A stretch of 64,000 nucleotides of DNA from a phage, in the sequence record PZ179883.1, one strand, 5' to 3'. The notes below the pieces were generated by a model. It saw only the letters and a list, made by a program, of their open reading frames with translations. It did not search any database and was not told where the DNA came from. Positions 2,866 through 52,053 of this stretch are shown here, one piece after another. Position 1 is the stretch's first letter. The number at the start of each line of letters is the position of its first letter. Position numbers and translations under genes: made by a program.

Positions 2866-3503
2866 TTAAGTGCCTTACATTTGTCAAAATGGTATCTTGT
2901 CATATTTGGCCCACGTCCTTTTAGTCCGCAATGCGGACATATTTTTTCTATCAAATTATGAGGTTTTCCTTTACGATTTTTAGACATCGTTTCTTTAATT
3001 ATTTTAGCTTTTTCTACGCCAAAAATTTCTTCATAAGTTTTACCAGAATTTTCCTTGGCTCGATTTATAATTCCATATGCCTGCTCATTTTTACCATACA
3101 TTGGATTACCTTCGCCTTTCATTCTTTTAGAATGATCAGGACGCTTGATTCCACGAAAGGCATTTCCGCACTTATATCTTTCTTCTGGAGATAGTTTTTT
3201 ACCGTACATTCCATTTAATTTGCCTGGAAAACTTCCTCCCCATGCTTCATTCTTTAAATTATATGAATCCGGACAATTAGCAGCATCTAAACAAGTTAAA
3301 ATAATTTCTTCAACCTGTCTAAACATTGGTCCTTCATATAATATTTCTTTATTAAAGGATTTTATTCCATATTTCTTTTTAGCATGTTGCCAAACTACAC
3401 CCGAACCATCATAATTCGGGTTGTGACCATCATGACTTCCTATATACCACTTTTTAGTTTTAGGATGTTTATACTTATAAACATGTGGCACATTTACTTC
3501 CAT
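2862..3503 (-). mobile_element. Free-standing GIY-YIG homing endonuclease with C-terminal zinc-finger region
   Basis: N-terminus VYKYKHPKTKKWYIGS fits the GIY-(10 aa)-YIG motif; repeated NPMYGK-type motifs; CPHC...HFDKC zinc-finger-like C-terminus; 4 nt and 10 nt overlaps with flanking genes. Confidence 0.7.
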
Positions 3504-4234
3504 TTTCCAGTATAATCCTTTTTAGCAATATGAGTCTCACCGGTGTTCCACCAATGGTCAACTAAATAAAACTGATTTTCGTACACATGAAGACTTCCAA
3601 CGTTCCATATAATAGAACCTGCTTTATATTGCCGCGATGGGTCGCCTGCATTCAAATCAGATACTAATTTATCTAGTACGTATTTTTGCCAAGCATAATC
3701 ATTACGATAGCCTGCCCAGCAATCATTGCTTCTCATGCTAACAACCGCATTGACTTTCTTATCACGAATCAGGTACTGTACTGTATTCGTACACATGAAA
3801 TCTGACATACCATCTTTATTGTAGTCAAACTGCATAGATGGACGAGTATAAATCATGATACCACGTCGAGAATCAGGATTTTGACCAAGTTCAGCTAAAC
3901 ACATATCATACTGGGCATAGTTATCTTCTGACCAGATGGCCCAACCATAATTCGAGTTAATTTCGCCTTTAGAAGATGCTACCTGCTGCCAAATCTTTGG
4001 TGTTTCACCTGGAATATCTTTAACAAACAAACTTTGAGACTTATACCATTCAAGTTCACGCTGAATGTATTCATCATTAAGAGCGCCAAAAATAAACGGT
4101 TCATCTGCTACAAATGATGCGCCAATAATTTCAATAGTTTTAACGCCAGTTTTATCAACTACGAAATCTTTTTCTTTTAATGCAAGCCCCAAATGAAGAC
4201 GGATTTCTTCAACTGTCATAGAGTCACTAATCAT
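3494..4234 (-). CDS. 42: dCMP hydroxymethylase gp42
   Basis: 246 aa, same length as T4 gp42; thymidylate-synthase-like fold motifs. Confidence 0.95.
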   Translation of the reverse strand: MISDSMTVEEIRLHLGLALKEKDFVVDKTGVKTIEIIGASFVADEPFIFGALNDEYIQRELEWYKSQSLFVKDIPGETPKIWQQVASSKGEINSNYGWAIWSEDNYAQYDMCLAELGQNPDSRRGIMIYTRPSMQFDYNKDGMSDFMCTNTVQYLIRDKKVNAVVSMRSNDCWAGYRNDYAWQKYVLDKLVSDLNAGDPSRQYKAGSIIWNVGSLHVYENQFYLVDHWWNTGETHIAKKDYTGKWK

Positions 4235-30361: not shown

Positions 30362-31348
30362 TTATTTCAGAAGAGTAACCTCAGCGATTTCTTGCCAACC
30401 GTTTTTGTCGGTCATAATAAAGTCAGCAAGATAAAGAGCAGTACGCAGTGAAACATTGCGTAAACGATTAACATTGACTTTCATCCATGATAATGCTTTA
30501 TAAGTTTCTTCATCAGAAAGACCGCGCTTTTGCATCATGTCAGTTGAAAGAATAACATCTTCAACCCTGACCATAATTTCTTCATTAGTGTGAACACCCA
30601 AATCCAAATAAACTGAGCGGGACACCAATGCTTGTAAGTGTGGGGCAAGTTTAGTACCACGGTCTAATTCGCGGTCAATGTCAACGTTTGTGATAAAAAC
30701 AATCGTTCCTTTAAATTCAAACTCACGGTCAATGCCTTTTTCTTCTAAGTAAGAAGATGCAGTGCTCCAGCAGACTTTACGGGTCTCTCCAGTGTCCAGA
30801 GCAGCTTTTAGAAGATTAAGAATGTCCATATCAGAGAAAACATCCACATCATCAATCAAAAGGACGGAATTCTCTTCACGATTATTCCAAAGCTGTTCAT
30901 AAAGACCAATACCAGAGATTTTACCATTAATGCTTTTATATTCAATGTATCCATTATCATTTGCTTTATTTAAAGCTTTATCTAAAGAATACGTTTTACC
31001 AATACCTGCTGCGCCAGAGATAATTAATGAACGAATATTTCCATTAATAATACCGTTCGTCATCATTCCCATAACATTAAATCTTTTATTAATGCGGGTT
31101 TTCATATCTTCATATGATTCTTTAACTTCTTCAACTTTTACACCATCATATGAAATATCTGATTTGTAAACCCAAACACCGCGACGTTTACCGTCAATTT
31201 CAACAAAAACTTTACCATCTCCTTGTGCATCTACCGGAGCATTATCTGGGAACCATTCACCTAAGAGCTCAAAAGTTCCAGAGATTTCTTTACCGAAGTA
31301 GATACCCTTATTGATAGTTACAGTTTTCATTTTATTCTCCAATTTCAC
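30362..31348 (-). CDS. AAA+ family ATPase with about 110 aa N-terminal extension
   Basis: Walker A GAAGIGKT, Walker B LLIDDVD, sensor-1-like ITNV; own early promoter. Confidence 0.6.
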   Translation of the reverse strand: MKLENKMKTVTINKGIYFGKEISGTFELLGEWFPDNAPVDAQGDGKVFVEIDGKRRGVWVYKSDISYDGVKVEEVKESYEDMKTRINKRFNVMGMMTNGIINGNIRSLIISGAAGIGKTYSLDKALNKANDNGYIEYKSINGKISGIGLYEQLWNNREENSVLLIDDVDVFSDMDILNLLKAALDTGETRKVCWSTASSYLEEKGIDREFEFKGTIVFITNVDIDRELDRGTKLAPHLQALVSRSVYLDLGVHTNEEIMVRVEDVILSTDMMQKRGLSDEETYKALSWMKVNVNRLRNVSLRTALYLADFIMTDKNGWQEIAEVTLLK

Positions 31349-31362
31349 ATTTGTTTTGATAG

Positions 31363-31400
31363 GGTAATAGTATCACACTACTACCCTGCTGTAAACAATT
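31363..31400 (-). promoter_or_regulatory. T4-type early promoter upstream of the AAA+ ATPase
   Basis: TTTACA N17 TACTAT; core gatagggtaatagtatcac shared with the copies near 51030 and 51330. Confidence 0.6.
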
Positions 31401-31663
31401 TATTTTAATGTTTGCCAAATTTTTACTGCTTCGCGACGAGATACTTCTACAGCTCCAAGTTCTACAGCTTTTTGGCGTCGCCGAGCGTGTAAGTCATAAT
31501 GTTTAATGCGTTTATCTTGAAACCAAGAACGTTTCATTCCTATTGCTTCTGCCATTTCGTGAAGCTCTTCAATATCTCCATCAGTGAACATATGACAATT
31601 TTTAGTTGGATGACCGCGAAGTTTCCATCCATGATTCATTAAAACATCTACGTAAACTGTCAT
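31400..31663 (-). CDS. Hypothetical protein
   Basis: 87 aa ORF with conserved-looking HMFTDG and HYDL segments. Confidence 0.4.
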   Translation of the reverse strand: MTVYVDVLMNHGWKLRGHPTKNCHMFTDGDIEELHEMAEAIGMKRSWFQDKRIKHYDLHARRRQKAVELGAVEVSRREAVKIWQTLK

Positions 31664-31809
31664 TGATTCTTCTCCAAATAAGTTTCGATAATTTTCTGAG
31701 CGAGATAAACTGCATTATCTTCAGTTGCATCTTCTAAGAAACTTTCAAAACACTCTGAAATTTCTTCTGTGTCAATCAACTTTTTTACTTCAATTGGTGT
31801 AATTTTCAT
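31660..31809 (-). CDS. Small hypothetical protein (start adjusted)
   Basis: ORF-track version 31660..31878 reads through an early promoter; internal MKITPIEVKK start gives about 49 aa. Confidence 0.3.
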   Translation of the reverse strand: MKITPIEVKKLIDTEEISECFESFLEDATEDNAVYLAQKIIETYLEKNQ

Positions 31810-31842: not shown

Positions 31843-31900
31843 TTGTATAGTACCATAAAGCTTTATGCTTGTAAACAATTTTGTGAAAAATTTTTGAAAT
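31843..31900 (-). promoter_or_regulatory. T4-type early promoter preceded by a UUCG terminator hairpin
   Basis: TTTACA N17 TACTAT with TTTTTCACAAAA UP element; hairpin at 31907-31924. Confidence 0.6.
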
Positions 31901-31906
31901 AAAAAA

Positions 31907-31924
31907 GGGAGCCCGAAGGCTCCC
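31907..31924 (-). terminator. UUCG hairpin terminator directly downstream of the nucleotidyltransferase gene
   Basis: gggagcc-cgaa-ggctccc with A-run (T-run on minus strand). Confidence 0.6.
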
Positions 31925-31926
31925 TA

Positions 31927-32940
31927 TCATTTATAATAACTTCGGTGGTTTTCAAGATAAACCCTCTCAAGGAAGTCATCCCAAAAACCCATGTCTACTT
32001 TTTGCTGCATACCGTTCTTAGAAGCTTCAGTAGATGCTGCTTCTACTTGATCGACCACATCTTCCAAAAACTCTTGAACCGTTTTAAATGGATGTTTACC
32101 CAACTTCACGTCGAGAATAAATGGAGCATCTTGGAGTGGATAAACCAAGTCACCAGTTTTGTAAATTTCCAATAGTTGAAGTCCACCACGACAAGCATGG
32201 CTCAGAGCTTTCCAGTCAATGCCTTCGTTGGCTTCGGCCTTACGAGCACGTTCACCGTATTCAGCATCTAATTTGTTCAGTGACTGCTTAAGCTCAATAA
32301 GAGAAAGAGTTGTCTGATATTTACGACCCAACACAGTGTAGAACGTTTGTGGGCCTGTTTTCTCATGATTATGGAACACCCATTCACAGAATTCGTTTTC
32401 TGGAAGACGATGCTTAATATCTTCAACTTTAGTACGACGCTGCTTAATGGAACCGTCTTCTTGGTAATCAACCCATTGCTCAGGGATTTGATTAACTACT
32501 TTCAATACATCACGTAATGCTGCCAAACGAGAACCCTTGACACCGTATTTAGAAGCTTGCTTACGGACATATCCTAAATATGATTTCATGTTAGTCGTAT
32601 AAAAACGAGAACGGTTGTCTTGAATAAACTTCCACACATCAGGCAAATCAGATTTAACCACTAACTCAGGTGGAGTGTGAAGCATATCTAACGCTACAGT
32701 TTCACCATCTGCTGCTAATTTAAAGAAATATTTAAGACTATACAATTCGTGGTCAATATCATCTTTAGTGTTTTTAGATGATGTGTTGTTAGTGTTTTTA
32801 CTCATATGCTCTTTAACATTTCCGATAAGAATATCACGAGCAGGAGGAACAAAGATTTCTTTAAAATCTACATCAGATTCTGGGGTAGAAGTTCCATAAA
32901 GATGACTACCAAAATAGCTTTTCATTACTGTTTTCATCAT
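31927..32940 (-). CDS. Pol-beta superfamily nucleotidyltransferase with helical C-terminal domain
   Basis: N-terminal GSHLYGTSTPESDVDFK fits the GS-x(9-13)-D-x-D nucleotidyltransferase motif; 337 aa; start overlaps upstream membrane-protein stop by 4 nt. Confidence 0.6.
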   Translation of the reverse strand: MMKTVMKSYFGSHLYGTSTPESDVDFKEIFVPPARDILIGNVKEHMSKNTNNTSSKNTKDDIDHELYSLKYFFKLAADGETVALDMLHTPPELVVKSDLPDVWKFIQDNRSRFYTTNMKSYLGYVRKQASKYGVKGSRLAALRDVLKVVNQIPEQWVDYQEDGSIKQRRTKVEDIKHRLPENEFCEWVFHNHEKTGPQTFYTVLGRKYQTTLSLIELKQSLNKLDAEYGERARKAEANEGIDWKALSHACRGGLQLLEIYKTGDLVYPLQDAPFILDVKLGKHPFKTVQEFLEDVVDQVEAASTEASKNGMQQKVDMGFWDDFLERVYLENHRSYYK

Positions 32941-33398
32941 TCAGCCTTATATTCAATAACAGGACATACTTTAGCTTTACGAGCTTTTAAAAATTCAACG
33001 ATAATCGATTTCTTGGGTTGAATAGGAGGTAAACCTTTATACGCCCTATCAATATTTTCTACGTGTAAAGCATAATCCTTTTTCCATTTATAATCTTTAT
33101 ATTTTTCACGCAGTTGTGCAGGAATAACAAATGAACCGATAATAAGTAAAACAAGCAAAATGGCAAGTATAAATGCTGATGGAATAAGAGTCCATAAACT
33201 ACCAAAAATAAGCCATTTCTGTATGATTTCTGCGCAGATGATAGTTAGACCTACGAGTATAGTACATCCGAAAAAAGAAACGAAAAATGTAGGGATAACA
33301 ATAGACCAAAAGTATGCGCACAGCGTCTTAGGTCGTTGCCATTCATCGTTAAACAATTTGAATAATTTATAGTGCCAAGAGTTTTCATTAATAATCAT
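32937..33398 (-). CDS. Polytopic membrane protein (3-4 transmembrane helices)
   Basis: 153 aa; long hydrophobic stretches; basic C-terminal tail. Confidence 0.5.
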   Translation of the reverse strand: MIINENSWHYKLFKLFNDEWQRPKTLCAYFWSIVIPTFFVSFFGCTILVGLTIICAEIIQKWLIFGSLWTLIPSAFILAILLVLLIIGSFVIPAQLREKYKDYKWKKDYALHVENIDRAYKGLPPIQPKKSIIVEFLKARKAKVCPVIEYKAE

Positions 33399-33400
33399 AA

Positions 33401-33922
33401 TTATCCTTTCATTGAAGGTGTAACAGTTGTTAAATACTTAATCATAGCTTCAGCTTCTGATTTTGATAATGAAATTTCTTCATTGTTTTGACGAATAGAA
33501 ATAAAATCCGGATGACGGTCACCACCGGCTTTTAAAACACACATATAAGTATCAGTTTCATCTTCAATATTTGAAATGATTGAAGCAGTTCCACACGAAT
33601 GTGGTTTTTGATAAATCAATACAGCTTTTCTTCCACCATTTGACTGTTCATAAACTTTTAATACATCAAACAAATCACTTCTTTTATCAATAGCTAAAAT
33701 GTTGTTTTCATCTTCAATGTTAAATCCTTCGGATACTTCATAAAGTGTCACCCATAAATCACCTATATCGATAGTAGCATTTTCCTTTCCATGACTTTCA
33801 AGAGCATGACAAATTTTCTTGATTTCGTCATAACTCATTTTAATAATATCATCTCCTTGACTAAGAAAGATGTCATTTTTAAATTCAACACGAATTAAAC
33901 CGCTTCCACTTGAAATAAACAT
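33401..33922 (-). CDS. Hypothetical protein, paralog 2 of a tandem pair
   Basis: 173 aa; C-terminus EAEAMIKYLTTVTPSMKG resembles the tail of the upstream ORF. Confidence 0.45.
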   Translation of the reverse strand: MFISSGSGLIRVEFKNDIFLSQGDDIIKMSYDEIKKICHALESHGKENATIDIGDLWVTLYEVSEGFNIEDENNILAIDKRSDLFDVLKVYEQSNGGRKAVLIYQKPHSCGTASIISNIEDETDTYMCVLKAGGDRHPDFISIRQNNEEISLSKSEAEAMIKYLTTVTPSMKG

Positions 33923-33928
33923 ATTTCC

Positions 33929-34486
33929 TCACTTTGAAATCATAGTTGGAATGACAGAATCAAGATAAGTCTTTAACGCAATAGCTTCGTCTTTGGTAAA
34001 TGTGACAATATGTGATCGAAAATCGTCAATTTGGCGAATAGTTAAGACATCTCCCTCTTCATAACATTTTGATACATTTAAAAGAGTTTCATCATTCTGA
34101 TTGCAAGCGTTAGTAATAATAGCATTGCAATTTTTGAGCCATTTTAAACTATGTTTTCTTTCATTAGAATAATAAAAATATTTAATCTTATCTATAAAAC
34201 TATCCCAATGGATAACTGATAAACACATTGACTCACTTTTAATATTAAATCCTGGGCATGAAGAATAAAAATGAATTTTGTGCTCATCATTGATGCTTAC
34301 TATTTTATCAGTATAAGGATATTCAATTTGGGTTAAATGAATGATTTCACTAGGCGTAAAATATAGCATATCGTCTTCTTGTGTCAAACGATACATATTA
34401 TTTACTTTTTCTATAGCTAATTCACCAAAAAGCGGACTAACTTCTAATACTAATCGTTTCATATTGATTCTCTTCGACTCACCCAC
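33929..34486 (-). CDS. Hypothetical protein, paralog 1 of a tandem pair
   Basis: 185 aa; C-terminus EAIALKTYLDSVIPTMISK. Confidence 0.45.
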   Translation of the reverse strand: MGESKRINMKRLVLEVSPLFGELAIEKVNNMYRLTQEDDMLYFTPSEIIHLTQIEYPYTDKIVSINDEHKIHFYSSCPGFNIKSESMCLSVIHWDSFIDKIKYFYYSNERKHSLKWLKNCNAIITNACNQNDETLLNVSKCYEEGDVLTIRQIDDFRSHIVTFTKDEAIALKTYLDSVIPTMISK

Positions 34487-34488
34487 AA

Positions 34489-34593
34489 TTACATACTCCT
34501 TTGAATAATATCAATAATGTTGTTCACCAGATTATAAGTAAACATTGGATAATTATATTGAATCATCACATACACAACAAACAAAACTTTCAT
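34489..34593 (-). CDS. Tiny hydrophobic peptide ORF (34 aa) at the head of the operon
   Basis: Hand-called: AAGGAG Shine-Dalgarno 7 nt upstream of ATG; MKVLFVVYVMIQYNYPMF...; not in ORF track. Confidence 0.25.
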   Translation of the reverse strand: MKVLFVVYVMIQYNYPMFTYNLVNNIIDIIQRSM

Positions 34594-34610
34594 TCTCTTC
34601 TCCTTGGCAG

Positions 34611-34642
34611 TTGACAAGATTACTATATCATAATCTTGTCAA
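34611..34642. promoter_or_regulatory. Perfect 12 bp inverted repeat with 8 nt spacer (candidate operator or structured element)
   Basis: ttgacaagatta-ctatatca-taatcttgtcaa; each arm contains TTGACA; lies directly upstream of the tiny-peptide ORF. Confidence 0.45.
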
Positions 34643-34816
34643 CTTGTAAACCATTAAATGACGTTTTCAATAAAATTCTGAAGCTTTGTGTGAGCATCAA
34701 CCATAATTTTCATTTCTTCCTTTGCGAAAGCTGTACCTCTTTCCCGAGCAGAATACTCATAGTCAGAAACTGCATTAGCATATTCTTCAATTAGCTTCAT
34801 TAAAAACATTTGCTTT

Positions 34817-48978: not shown

Positions 48979-49054
48979 TGGTGCTGATTGACGGAATCGA
49001 ACCGCCGACCTTCTCATTACAAGTGAGTTGCTCTACCTACTGAGCTAAATCAGC
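48979..49054 (-). tRNA. tRNA-Thr (anticodon UGU)
   Basis: Anticodon loop CUUGUAA; acceptor GCTGATT/AATCAGC; CCA encoded. Confidence 0.8.
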
Positions 49055-49059
49055 AAAAC

Positions 49060-49149
49060 TGGCGGAGGCGATAGGATTTGAACCTATGAGTCGCCGGAGC
49101 GACTGCCGGTTTTCAAGACCGGTGCATTAAACCACTCTGCCACGCCTCC
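49060..49149 (-). tRNA. tRNA-Ser (anticodon UGA), class II
   Basis: 90 nt; anticodon stem CCGGT/ACCGG, loop CUUGAAA; long variable arm. Confidence 0.8.
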
Positions 49150-49151
49150 AG

Positions 49152-49225
49152 TCTCCGTGGCAGGATTTGAACCTACGACATTCTGCTCCCAAAGCAGACG
49201 CTCTACCAAACTGAGCTACACGGAG
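49152..49225 (-). tRNA. tRNA-Pro (anticodon UGG), 3-prime CCA not encoded
   Basis: Anticodon loop UUUGGGA; abuts tRNA-Ser, like the T4 Pro-Ser dimeric precursor. Confidence 0.8.
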
Positions 49226-49235
49226 TAAATTAAAT

Positions 49236-49309
<74 letters not shown>

Positions 49310-49314
49310 AAATT

Positions 49315-49401
49315 TGGTGCGAGAAGTGGGACTCGAACCCACAAGGAAATCATTCCGCAGCATTTTAAGTGCTGTGCCTTTACCAATTTGACCATTCTCG
49401 C
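49315..49401 (-). tRNA. tRNA-Leu (anticodon UAA), class II
   Basis: 87 nt; anticodon loop CUUAAAA; T-arm GTGGG-TTCGAGT-CCCAC; CCA encoded. Confidence 0.8.
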
Positions 49402-49407
49402 TCTATA

Positions 49408-50040
49408 TTATTTATTACGTGAAAAAGATTGTTCTATCAATTCTGGACACTTTCGTTCTATCCATTTTCTAGCTTTTTGTGGGCTTATACCTATTATTTT
49501 AGCAGCTTTACTAACCCATCCAAATTTAGAATAATCGATTTTAACTAATTCTTCGTAAATTTCATCAGTTAAAATCTTTTCATTAATATTTACCAGTAAA
49601 TGATATAATTTATTATCATTAGCAATTTTAATGAATCTTTTATAGTTTCCGCCTTTACTTAAACCTAATGAAGTAATTGCAGATGATATAGTAGCCGAAT
49701 TTAATAATGCGTTTAAAATTTCTTCATCACTAACATTATAACGCTTTTTATTATTTTTAATATTTTTACCAGCAAAAGTATCAGTTTGCGAATGGCAATT
49801 TGGACATAATAATCTTAAATTTGATTTAAGATGATTTTTGTTATTTCCATCAATATGGTCTAATTGCAGAACAATATGCTTATTTTGCCATTTTGAAATT
49901 TTACAAATTGCACACTCATATGGAAAAATATTTTCTTTTATTATTTTGTCTTTCAGCTTTCCTGTACTAAAATTTGGATGTTTTCCTTCAAAAATTTCAG
50001 CTAATTTAGTATCCATAATATAATTCCCAATTATTAACAA
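49408..50040 (-). mobile_element. HNH homing endonuclease
   Basis: 210 aa; LQLDHIDGNNKNHLKSNLRLLCPNCHSQTD is an HNH motif with zinc-binding cysteines; helix-turn-helix-like C-terminus; ends 6 nt from tRNA-Leu. Confidence 0.7.
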
Positions 50041-50126: not shown

Positions 50127-50414
50127 TTACCATTTATAATAATACATATTTACGATGCATTCAAGACCCAAAGGATTCTTGAAAATATCATATTCAAGAG
50201 GACCTTTTTCTGTTTCAATAAAGAAATCAAAATTTACTGTATTAAATTTACGTTCTTCCTTCACTAATTTAACTTGAGAAGATGAACGGTCAATGTAAAC
50301 CTTTTCAACTTCAAAACATGTTAAAATGCCATAATCATCAATCAAAGCTTTAGCCGCGTCTTGATCATATTTATATCCATTTTCAATGGATGATACTTTC
50401 GCATAAAGAATCAT
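50127..50414 (-). CDS. Hypothetical protein
   Basis: 95 aa ORF. Confidence 0.4.
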   Translation of the reverse strand: MILYAKVSSIENGYKYDQDAAKALIDDYGILTCFEVEKVYIDRSSSQVKLVKEERKFNTVNFDFFIETEKGPLEYDIFKNPLGLECIVNMYYYKW

Positions 50415-50416
50415 TA

Positions 50417-50815
50417 TCAGCCTTCATCAACAATAGTGTGAGTATTAGCATTTACGATTTGCCACCAATCAAAGCGATTAGAATCCATCGGTTTGTTTTC
50501 ATTTTCTTTGATAATGTCACGGAGTTCATCTTCAGAGAATGCTTTAGCAATTAAATCGGTATACCCACCACGGGGATAATAATTATCACCTGCAAACAAA
50601 AGGAAATTTACCTTCCCGGAAGCAACATATGCTTCCTTAGGATACTTGTTTCCTGCGTGGTCAACCACTTCAATATAACGGTAAGGAATATCGGTTCTTT
50701 CAACCCATTGCCATGCCGCCGCAGGGGAATCGAAAGCATCTACACCTAAACGATTATCTTCATCTTTAGACGGATTATTTTCGTAATCCGCATATACATA
50801 ATATTCAACGTTCAT
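50417..50815 (-). CDS. Hypothetical acidic protein
   Basis: 132 aa ORF. Confidence 0.4.
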   Translation of the reverse strand: MNVEYYVYADYENNPSKDEDNRLGVDAFDSPAAAWQWVERTDIPYRYIEVVDHAGNKYPKEAYVASGKVNFLLFAGDNYYPRGGYTDLIAKAFSEDELRDIIKENENKPMDSNRFDWWQIVNANTHTIVDEG

Positions 50816-51000
50816 TATTCACCTTTAGAAATTTTATCCATAACAATAGCAATTAAACCAATTAAAAATGCTACTACAAGTGAAAACACATTTTCTGCTG
50901 TAGTCAATAATCCACATATAAATCCAACAAACATTGAAAAACTAAAAGCGGAAGCAGAAATTGCAATAGCAACATTTCGAATTAATTCACAACGTTTCAT
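50815..51000 (-). CDS. Small membrane protein
   Basis: 61 aa with two hydrophobic helices; own early promoter upstream. Confidence 0.4.
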   Translation of the reverse strand: MKRCELIRNVAIAISASAFSFSMFVGFICGLLTTAENVFSLVVAFLIGLIAIVMDKISKGE

Positions 51001-51024
51001 TTTATTCTCCTCAGTAGTAGATAG

Positions 51025-51060
51025 GGTAATAGTATCACTACCCTATCTAAAAGTAAACTT
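51025..51060 (-). promoter_or_regulatory. T4-type early promoter
   Basis: TTTACT N17 TACTAT; upstream of the small membrane protein. Confidence 0.55.
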
Positions 51061-51292
51061 ATTTTTTACGAAAAATTGATTTATTTTCTGCTGCCCATTT
51101 TTCAATAACTGCAGCAGGACCAGTAACAACAATTTTATCACCGTAATCTTCTGCGGCGAGTTGACCGAAATTATCTAATGCATCACGAAGAACTCCATGA
51201 GGCATTTCACCCATTTTATCTTTCTTGCCAGTGTAAATAAACTCAACTTTTACATCAGCAGTTTCAGCAATAAATTCTTGGTAAGTTTTCAT
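51059..51292 (-). CDS. Internal protein at the IPI locus, divergent from T4 IPI
   Basis: Internal start MKTYQEFIAE (exact T4 leader) followed by sequence unlike T4 IPI as I recall it; adjacent to 57B as ipI is in T4. Confidence 0.6.
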   Translation of the reverse strand: MKTYQEFIAETADVKVEFIYTGKKDKMGEMPHGVLRDALDNFGQLAAEDYGDKIVVTGPAAVIEKWAAENKSIFRKK

Positions 51293-51322
51293 TTTGATTT
51301 CCATTTGGTTTTGTTTTGATAG

Positions 51323-51368
51323 GGTAATAGTATCACAACTAAAACCCTATGTAAACAACTTTGTGAAA

Positions 51369-51370
<2 letters not shown>
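51323..51370 (-). promoter_or_regulatory. T4-type early promoter upstream of the IPI-locus gene
   Basis: TTTACA N17 TACTAT. Confidence 0.6.

Positions 51371-52053
<683 letters not shown>

Follow-up and report, generated by a model that had tools for sequence, protein, structure and literature searches.

The stretch of phage DNA analysed here – 64,000 nucleotides (nt) of sequence record PZ179883.1, hereafter the window – carries on its minus strand, at positions 31927–34642, an early transcription unit, nrdC.11–mobD.2, which belongs to a phage of T2/T4 type (Tequatrovirus) and is arranged as in most members of that genus. The last gene of the unit encodes NrdC.11, which appears by its sequence to be a nucleotidyltransferase of the RlaP family within the Pol-beta superfamily, and whose most likely role would be RNA-end repair as a means of counter-defence. 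The account as a whole – an early unit that would combine RlaP-type repair with partners of PUR/Whirly fold, an independent membrane gene and a hairpin of read-through transcripts – seems to us moderately probable. Most of its components are known: the cassette is in the catalogues already, and recent work that characterised the enzyme family names T4 NrdC.11.

In outline, host RNA polymerase would start at a strong T4-type early promoter, transcribe mobD.2, mobD.1, the mobD.1 paralog, the small membrane protein gene and nrdC.11 in that order, and stop at a UUCG hairpin terminator. By analogy with bacterial enzymes of its family, NrdC.11 would most likely extend RNA 3'-OH ends by one or two nucleotides without a template; host anticodon nucleases of the RloC type excise nucleotides from the tRNAs that they cleave, and such losses would be made good in this way, whereupon Pnkp and RNA ligase of the phage, whose genes lie at other sites in the genome, would reseal a usable tRNA. 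As for cooperation between the five products, MobD.1 and its paralog would be plausible RNA-handling or regulatory partners, given the shared unit, and the membrane protein is probably an independent accessory gene. The palindrome at the promoter would fold as an RNA hairpin only in transcripts coming from upstream, setting these apart from transcripts of the embedded promoter.

The unit and its borders comprise the following features (aa, amino acids; ORF, open reading frame):

34622..34650, minus strand: early promoter, T4-type, with GTTTACA (-35), 17-nt spacer and TG-extended -10 TATAGT
34609..34644, minus strand: inverted repeat around the -10, AGTTGACAAGATTA – 8 nt – TAATCTTGTCAACT, a predicted RNA hairpin
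34489..34593, minus strand: mobD.2, 34 aa, phrog_3515 (E 6.5e-22), with a T4 counterpart; AAGGAG
33929..34486, minus strand: mobD.1, 185 aa, GTG start, with an in-frame ATG at 34462 as alternative start; predicted PUR/Whirly fold
33401..33922, minus strand: gene of the MobD.1 paralog, 173 aa, with both Pfam domains; absent from T4
32937..33398, minus strand: small membrane protein gene, 153 aa, phrog_944, no Pfam family
31927..32940, minus strand: nrdC.11, 337 aa, putative RlaP-family nucleotidyltransferase (PF10127; phrog_388), T4 NrdC.11
31906..31925, minus strand: intrinsic terminator, 8-bp GC-rich stem, UUCG loop, U-run
31847..31875, minus strand: early promoter of the next unit (49 aa ORF and DUF4031 gene), TTTACA-17-TACTAT with TG

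The five ORFs (34, 185, 173, 153 and 337 aa) are closely packed within 31927–34593: in the order of transcription, the first three gaps measure 2, 6 and 2 nt, and the membrane-protein gene and nrdC.11 overlap by 4 nt (ATGA). Bounded by promoter and terminator, they look like one early transcription unit, as an earlier, sequence-only reading of this DNA had proposed, coordinates and spacing included. That reading had also described the cassette as an orphan, which it is not: three of its genes are T4 nrdC.11, mobD.1 and mobD.2. The 337 aa protein is identical to T4 NrdC.11 at 331 of 336 residues (99%), the 185 aa protein shares 87% identity with T4 MobD.1, and T4 mobD.2 is the same in length, position and upstream sequence. 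Phage records matching the block number 685 by megablast, with at least 80% of the block present in 429 and Tequatrovirus genomes of 98% identity at the top, and Gaprivervirus, Mosigvirus and Tequatrovirus all retain the gene order MobD.1 – membrane protein – NrdC.11. None of the five proteins scored above threshold in NCBIfam or PADLOC.

Between nrdC.11 and mobD.1, T4 has the HNH gene mobD where the window has the 173 aa and 153 aa genes; the site is known as the insertion site of a free-standing HNH homing endonuclease in T4 (PMC2988022). The endonuclease-free arrangement is the common one and T4 is atypical at this locus, so that the membrane protein and the paralog of MobD.1 need to be studied in T2-like phages. 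T4 is viable after loss of nrdC.11–mobD.3 (PMC9825161), which marks the block as accessory, and such laboratory non-essentiality is as expected for a counter-defence gene. The sequence-only reading had itself allowed for a conserved and characterised T4 nrdC.x/mobD.x gene set with a housekeeping function; conserved the set is, but neither characterised nor housekeeping. The leading peptide, MobD.2, has its AAGGAG Shine–Dalgarno sequence 6 nt 5' of the ATG; that reading had called the peptide hydrophobic, but it is only moderately so (mean Kyte–Doolittle value 0.68) and lacks a full-length transmembrane segment.

NrdC.11 and its proposed role in RNA-end repair

NrdC.11 matches Pfam PF10127 (RlaP, 'RNA repair pathway DNA polymerase beta family') at E 2.4e-11 with 44.3 bits, the gathering score being 23, and RlaP is both its best and its sole significant Pfam family. 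It also matches phrog_388 'nucleotidyltransferase' at E 8e-137; PF10127 is precomputed on all 120 of the 120 NrdC.11 homologs listed, and the assignment to COG3541 goes back to 2006 (PMC1524935). The motif GSHLYGTSTPESDVDFK, a GS-x10-DxD of Pol-beta type already noticed in the sequence-only reading, is present, and residues G11, S12, D23, D25 and D85 are invariant among NrdC.11 orthologs down to 54% identity, the motif pattern suggesting D85 as the third catalytic Asp. Public labels of NrdC.11 are often wrong, among them 'thioredoxin' and even 'HNH homing endonuclease'.

Two Pseudomonas RlaP enzymes were characterised in a December 2025 preprint (PMC12776372). They put one or two nucleoside monophosphates onto RNA 3'-OH ends, use Mn2+ and are inactive on DNA, protein and small molecules; their nucleoside triphosphate (NTP) specificity is low, and they label rRNA as well as tRNA, whether full-length or fragmented. 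Given a mimic of a cleaved anticodon, they favour its 3' end over the strand on the acceptor side, and they partly restore the aminoacylation of a tRNA short of one anticodon-loop nucleotide (PMC12776372). T4 NrdC.11 is named there as an RlaP member in a separate cluster 5, its function being called unknown. A comparison of jumbo phages predicts that phage RlaP replaces nucleotides lost to RloC-like nucleases before ligation (PMC7824862). If NrdC.11 works like bacterial RlaP, T-even phages would also own the missing step, namely the re-adding of excised nucleotides, which would be needed against RloC-like nucleases, previously believed to overcome such repair by phages. It was in T4, with Pnkp/Rnl1 against PrrC, that RNA repair first became known as a phage counter-defence. 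Counter-defence, the function first suggested for the block, is the current prediction for the RlaP family; what falls away is the mechanism then attached to it, a cGAS-like signalling enzyme coupled to a membrane protein.

That mechanism would have a cGAS/CD-NTase- or OAS-like enzyme and the membrane protein make or intercept nucleotide signals (CBASS, Thoeris) or confer superinfection exclusion. It would fit the generic GS-x10-DxD motif, the 4 nt overlap of the two genes and a gene order kept in several Tevenvirinae genera, but we regard it as very improbable: no PADLOC defence model, CD-NTases included, matches NrdC.11 at E <= 0.1, nor is any CD-NTase, cGAS or OAS family of Pfam listed for it at that threshold. 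Moreover, characterised RlaP acts on RNA 3' ends and not on small molecules, proteins or DNA (PMC12776372), T4 keeps nrdC.11 without the membrane gene, and the membrane family is mostly free of nucleotidyltransferases. It is also quite unlikely that NrdC.11 is of MNT/KNTase type and nucleotidylylates a protein or small molecule, for instance to neutralise a HEPN-type toxin of the host, as MntA antitoxins do. Similarity to such enzymes is confined to 18 residues of the generic GS..DxD motif and stays far under the cut-offs, at 13.6 bits for PF01909 (NTP_transf_2; cut-off 21) and 13.2 bits for NF047752 MntA (cut-off 60); the family that does reach significance is RlaP, whose enzymes left Escherichia coli proteins unlabelled (PMC12776372), and the structure model of NrdC.11 is unreliable.

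A closer relative of the repair account has NrdC.11 acting on RNA 3' ends to mend tRNA 3'-CCA termini or to tail host or early phage RNA and thereby affect its stability. The broad substrate range and low NTP specificity of RlaP (PMC12776372) would suit this, as would the tRNA gene cluster that close relatives annotate at a position matching window ~49–50 kb, and the lack of a ligase beside nrdC.11. It is nonetheless rather doubtful, as RlaP favours the cleaved-anticodon mimic over the acceptor side (PMC12776372), and an addition that ends after 1–2 nt is a poor fit to tailing.

Restoration of excised anticodon nucleotides is the reading we prefer, and several points weigh against it. The RlaP match is limited to NrdC.11 residues 7–135 (profile positions 23–142 of 249), and NrdC.11 clusters apart from the characterised RlaP enzymes (PMC12776372). 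RlaP activity was measured for the Pseudomonas enzymes, and there untemplated addition restored the correct nucleotide in a minority of products only (PMC12776372). The AlphaFold 2 (AF2) model of NrdC.11 is poor (predicted local distance difference test score, pLDDT, 56; below 40 at the N-terminus) because only close homologs were supplied; sequence and profile searches of the Protein Data Bank (PDB) with NrdC.11 gave no match, the PfRlaP structure seemingly not being detectable in the copy searched. No RNA ligase, Pnkp or RtcA/B is found among the annotated neighbours of nrdC.11 in T4, G9062, VR7, Mosigvirus and KpV477, so that the association with a ligase from which the family has its name is missing at this locus; the RNA ligase and kinase genes of T-even phages are located elsewhere in the genome. 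Finally, among the flanks of 51 diverse viral loci encoding the membrane family, 34 show neither a match to the NrdC.11 hidden Markov model (HMM) nor a convincing GS..DxD ORF within 4 kb, and T4 lacks the membrane gene at its nrdC.11 locus, both of which argue against a five-gene functional module.

The MobD.1 proteins and the membrane protein

MobD.1 and the 173 aa protein are paralogs (27% identity, E 1e-9) that share a C-terminal tail, which bears out the two soluble proteins with similar tails described earlier. Both carry PF24449 and PF24448, the N- and C-terminal domains of a 'y05I-like putative transcription factor', the T4_y05I domain scores being 134 and 75 bits for the 185 aa protein and 114 and 83 bits for the 173 aa protein, all above the gathering score. 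Of the two, the conserved ortholog is the copy of 185 aa: its IPTMISK tail recurs in relatives at 45–51% identity, and in single-copy genomes (VR7, Mosigvirus) it is the 185 aa type that stands beside the membrane gene. The 173 aa copy is restricted to Tequatrovirus; at an identity of at least 80% it is found in ~434 phage records, all of Tequatrovirus type, and it yields 13 clusters in a search of 5.8 billion proteins. A natural chimera, P0131 (179 aa), joins a MobD.1-type N-terminus to the C-terminus of the 173 aa paralog and indicates recombination between the tandem paralogs, with collapse into one gene. In public annotation, MobD.1 or MobD.4 is mislabelled as 'molybdopterin-guanine dinucleotide biosynthesis protein MobD'.

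The structure model of MobD.1 shows repeated beta-beta-beta-beta-alpha units forming a PUR-type domain, with the C-terminal domain modelled at low confidence. A BFVD fold search returned the MobD.1 family itself and nothing else, and sequence and profile searches of the PDB gave no significant match. PUR and Whirly are PC4-like families that bind single-stranded DNA or RNA (PMC7549692), and from the match of the modelled fold to such families, single-stranded RNA or DNA is the predicted ligand of MobD.1 and its paralog. The assignment of MobD.1 to a PUR/Whirly fold, model-based as it is, is new from this analysis.

Residues 25–98 of the 153 aa protein form an uninterrupted hydrophobic core, with room for ~2–4 helices, in keeping with the multi-helix membrane protein first proposed. 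The protein occurs in 860 phage records, and an exhaustive HMMER search at E <= 1e-3 gathered 449 clusters (50% identity) of mostly full-length proteins of 120–170 aa; it has no relative in Pfam, NCBIfam or the PDB. Across 31 diverse members, an N-terminus of the form INxNSWHYK..PxSLCxYFW and a C-terminus KAxKxKVCPxIEF are kept around a variable core, with C27, K143, C145 and P146 invariant. This motif architecture and the distribution of the family are new from this analysis. T4 NrdC.7 was considered as a homolog of the membrane protein and was rejected on comparison.

In 17 of the 51 loci scanned, all of them T4-like contigs, NrdC.11 lies within ~2 kb downstream of the membrane gene; the 34 nucleotidyltransferase-free loci include jumbo-phage and 30–100 kb contigs. 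The membrane protein is thus linked to the nucleotidyltransferase within Tevenvirinae only, and together with the absence of the membrane gene from T4 this makes the linkage a matter of lineage synteny and not evidence of a two-component system, contrary to the functional coupling that the earlier reading had assumed. The association of the membrane gene with MobD.1 is tighter, a MobD.1-family gene standing directly upstream in 18 loci. In Klebsiella-type T4-like phages this upstream gene encodes the MobD.1 C-domain only (68–75 aa; loci L137, L139, L140, L142 and L145 at ~3770–4010, and L005 at 3271–3501), and 1–3 extra genes stand between the membrane gene and nrdC.11. On a 150 kb viral contig, the ORF that comes after the membrane-family gene (L152, 4478–5509; 343 aa) has a nucleotidyltransferase-like motif, ..SKQDFGDIDVLVS.., which differs from that of NrdC.11; the ORF is unrelated to NrdC.11 by HMM.

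A more ambitious proposal would unite MobD.1, its paralog and NrdC.11 in an RNA-end restoration module, in which the MobD.1 proteins, by binding or annealing RNA, hold broken tRNA halves for NrdC.11 in the manner in which MRP1/2 hold guide RNA, perhaps at the membrane; classical T4 tRNA repair would thereby reach to nucleotide-excising nucleases. The proposal would link this module with a genome-wide device of promoter hairpins. Since the membrane gene and the MobD.1 C-domain show conserved pairing, the activity could, on this proposal, be placed at the membrane, but we consider the whole unlikely.

A probable RNA hairpin around the early promoter

The promoter of the unit (10 of 12 positions matched in the scan, with TG) is embedded in a perfect inverted repeat whose 14-nt arms, 34609–34622 and 34631–34644, flank an 8-nt loop. 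The upstream palindrome had been given as 12 base pairs; the repeat is indeed perfect, but its arms are longer. The 5' arm is closely preceded by the -35 GTTTACA, and the loop, which holds the -10, leads straight into the 3' arm; the AAGGAG of mobD.2 starts 5 nt past the stem and does not pair in the centroid fold. The promoter and repeat sequence also occurs in T4, and at the homologous site the annotation of Yersinia phage fPS-2 has a 'promoter' feature. Of all perfect repeats of hairpin type in the window, this one is the longest: in 30 simulations, generated from a first-order Markov model of the window and not by the dinucleotide-preserving shuffles of other tools, arms of at least 14 nt never arose and arms of at least 12 nt averaged 0.23 per simulation. 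Taken as RNA, it folds at -24 kcal/mol (z -5.1).

Pairing within the repeat is conserved where its sequence is not. Among nine distinct variants – a small sample of essentially two clades – 95% of cells are paired and 5 of the 14 pairs are changed on both sides, while the -35 and the loop with its -10 are invariant; the pairing is lost when partner columns are slid against each other. In Mosigvirus the arms read TTGGTAGGA(C/T)TA / TA(A/G)TCCTACCAA, with compensatory changes and the -35 and loop kept, and several Tequatrovirus variants carry G:U intermediates. A scan of IMG/VR with the pattern GTTTAC-N15-TGRTATAGTA recovered many T4-like early promoters before different genes, and in 24 of 109 distinct sequences at least 10 of 12 positions of the spacer pair with those after the -10. 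When stems were picked by Watson–Crick content alone, the remaining positions comprised 23 G:U on the sense strand against 6 A:C, an excess that points to pairing in the sense transcript and not to a symmetric protein operator. Covarying between genera as it does, with G:U intermediates, the palindrome is probably an RNA hairpin of read-through transcripts, one of a recurring class. The transcript of the embedded promoter should, from its predicted start, lack the 5' arm, so that only read-through RNA would fold.

The palindrome might instead act at the DNA level, as the operator of a dimeric protein of the phage for which MobD.1 would be the candidate, and serve to autoregulate the unit or to help shut off early promoters. 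The repeat overlaps the promoter core, MobD.1 belongs to the same unit, its predicted fold is found in transcription factors that bind single-stranded DNA and Pfam calls its family a 'putative transcription factor'; Tequatrovirus and Mosigvirus have different arm sequences and also different versions of MobD.1, and T4 early-promoter shut-off is still unexplained (PMC2988021; PMC3014915). An operator is nevertheless improbable in view of the G:U bias and of like hairpins with unrelated arm sequences at other early promoters, and PUR/Whirly proteins bind single strands, not duplex palindromes (PMC7549692). In the window, the half-site occurs exactly only as the two arms themselves, and matches with 1–2 mismatches are at chance level (23 against 16 expected).

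The window holds a second hairpin of the same architecture at 51018–51049 (minus strand), the sole other perfect repeat with arms of at least 10 nt. Its order is GTTTAC (-35 at ~51057), TAGATAGGGTA, a loop with the TG-extended -10 TACTAT, TACCCTATCTA, GAGGAG and the ATG of an ORF that starts at ~51000 and encodes a membrane-like protein (MKRCELIRNV...). At three further minus-strand early promoters, with the -35 at ~42268, 29953 and 39652, the spacer is complementary to the downstream Shine–Dalgarno sequence (TTCCTCCAAG versus CTTGGAGGAA; CTGTTCCTC versus GAGGAACAG), and there read-through RNA could hide the ribosome-binding site whereas RNA begun at the promoter itself could not. These promoters and the IMG/VR set together suggest a general feature of T-even early promoters. 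The hairpin of the nrdC.11–mobD.2 unit could be one case of a T-even device in which early spacers pair with their own 5' untranslated region or Shine–Dalgarno sequence, so that read-through and initiated mRNAs differ; if true, this might bear on the unexplained shut-off or handover of early expression. The class of promoter-embedded hairpins is new from this analysis, a limited literature search, including for terms in T4 reviews, having found no description of it.

Neighbouring genes and known systems

Downstream of nrdC.11, the terminator at 31906–31925 has the form AGGGAGCC-UUCG-GGCUCCCU, with 8 pairs (6 GC) and a U-run tail, TTTTTTATTT, and is annotated in phage G9062 (-18.9). The next early promoter follows at 31875–31847, in agreement with the terminator and promoter placed there by the earlier reading. 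That promoter overlaps a 20-nt quasi-palindrome (31843–31878; 80% complementary) centred on AAGCTT, in which the -35 region pairs with the -10 region and which could have arisen by chance. It serves a 49 aa ORF (31660–31809, minus strand; phrog_6888) and the gene of an 87 aa DUF4031 protein (31400–31663, minus strand; PF13223, E 1e-21), which sit between the nrdC.10-like gene and nrdC.11, where T4 has only a 114-bp gap. The NrdC.10 homolog itself (30362–31348, minus strand; phrog_1250) has weak P-loop similarity to AAA/STAND NTPases, with Pfam E ~1e-4 and scores under the cut-offs. Small ORFs near the block are mislabelled 'helicase loader'.

Sequence L180 of Yersinia phage ZN18, a close relative, is 100% identical to window 50400–51400. 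Its positions 116–1130 (window ~49000–50030) hold a cluster of 11 tRNA genes, and its positions 2470–2928 (window ~51370–51830) a 152 aa gene that the Prokaryotic Genome Annotation Pipeline (PGAP) labels 'RNA ligase'. By position, we take this gene to be T4 57B, the 2H-phosphoesterase Acb1, and not a ligase.

Set beside known systems, the intergenic position of the paralog and the membrane gene is that of the T4 mobD site, but T4 has the endonuclease there and the window has the endonuclease-free arrangement common to ~430 Tequatrovirus records. NrdC.11 resembles T4 NrdC.11 and the RlaP family (PF10127, COG3541) in identity, PF10127 score and the signature of GS and three Asp residues; it differs from Pseudomonas RlaP in its length of ~337 aa with a low-complexity insert at residues ~40–62, and its C-terminal half lies outside the Pfam alignment of the family. 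MobD.1 shares only 5–10% sequence identity with PUR-alpha, Whirly and MRP1–MRP2 and no sequence-level membership, standing in Pfam families of its own (PF24449, PF24448).

With T4 Pnkp/Rnl1, directed against the anticodon nuclease PrrC, the proposed role of NrdC.11 shares the lineage and the principle of a phage mending tRNA damage inflicted by its host. Pnkp and Rnl1, however, heal and seal a simple nick, whereas NrdC.11 would put back missing nucleotides, and its gene is unlinked to theirs. The hairpin, for its part, recalls the initiation regions of T4 genes e, soc, 49 and I-TevI, where a hairpin logic is established (PMC3014915), and of Aeh1 mobE: in each the promoter lies inside the hairpin, so that RNA coming from upstream would fold and RNA begun at the promoter would be without the 5' arm, the transcription start here being a predicted one. 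Sequestration of the Shine–Dalgarno sequence or start codon in the stem is not found at mobD.2, the former lying 5 nt downstream of the stem, whereas it lies inside the stem in the T4 hairpin regions; and the embedded promoter, which is late or middle in those regions, is here an early one.

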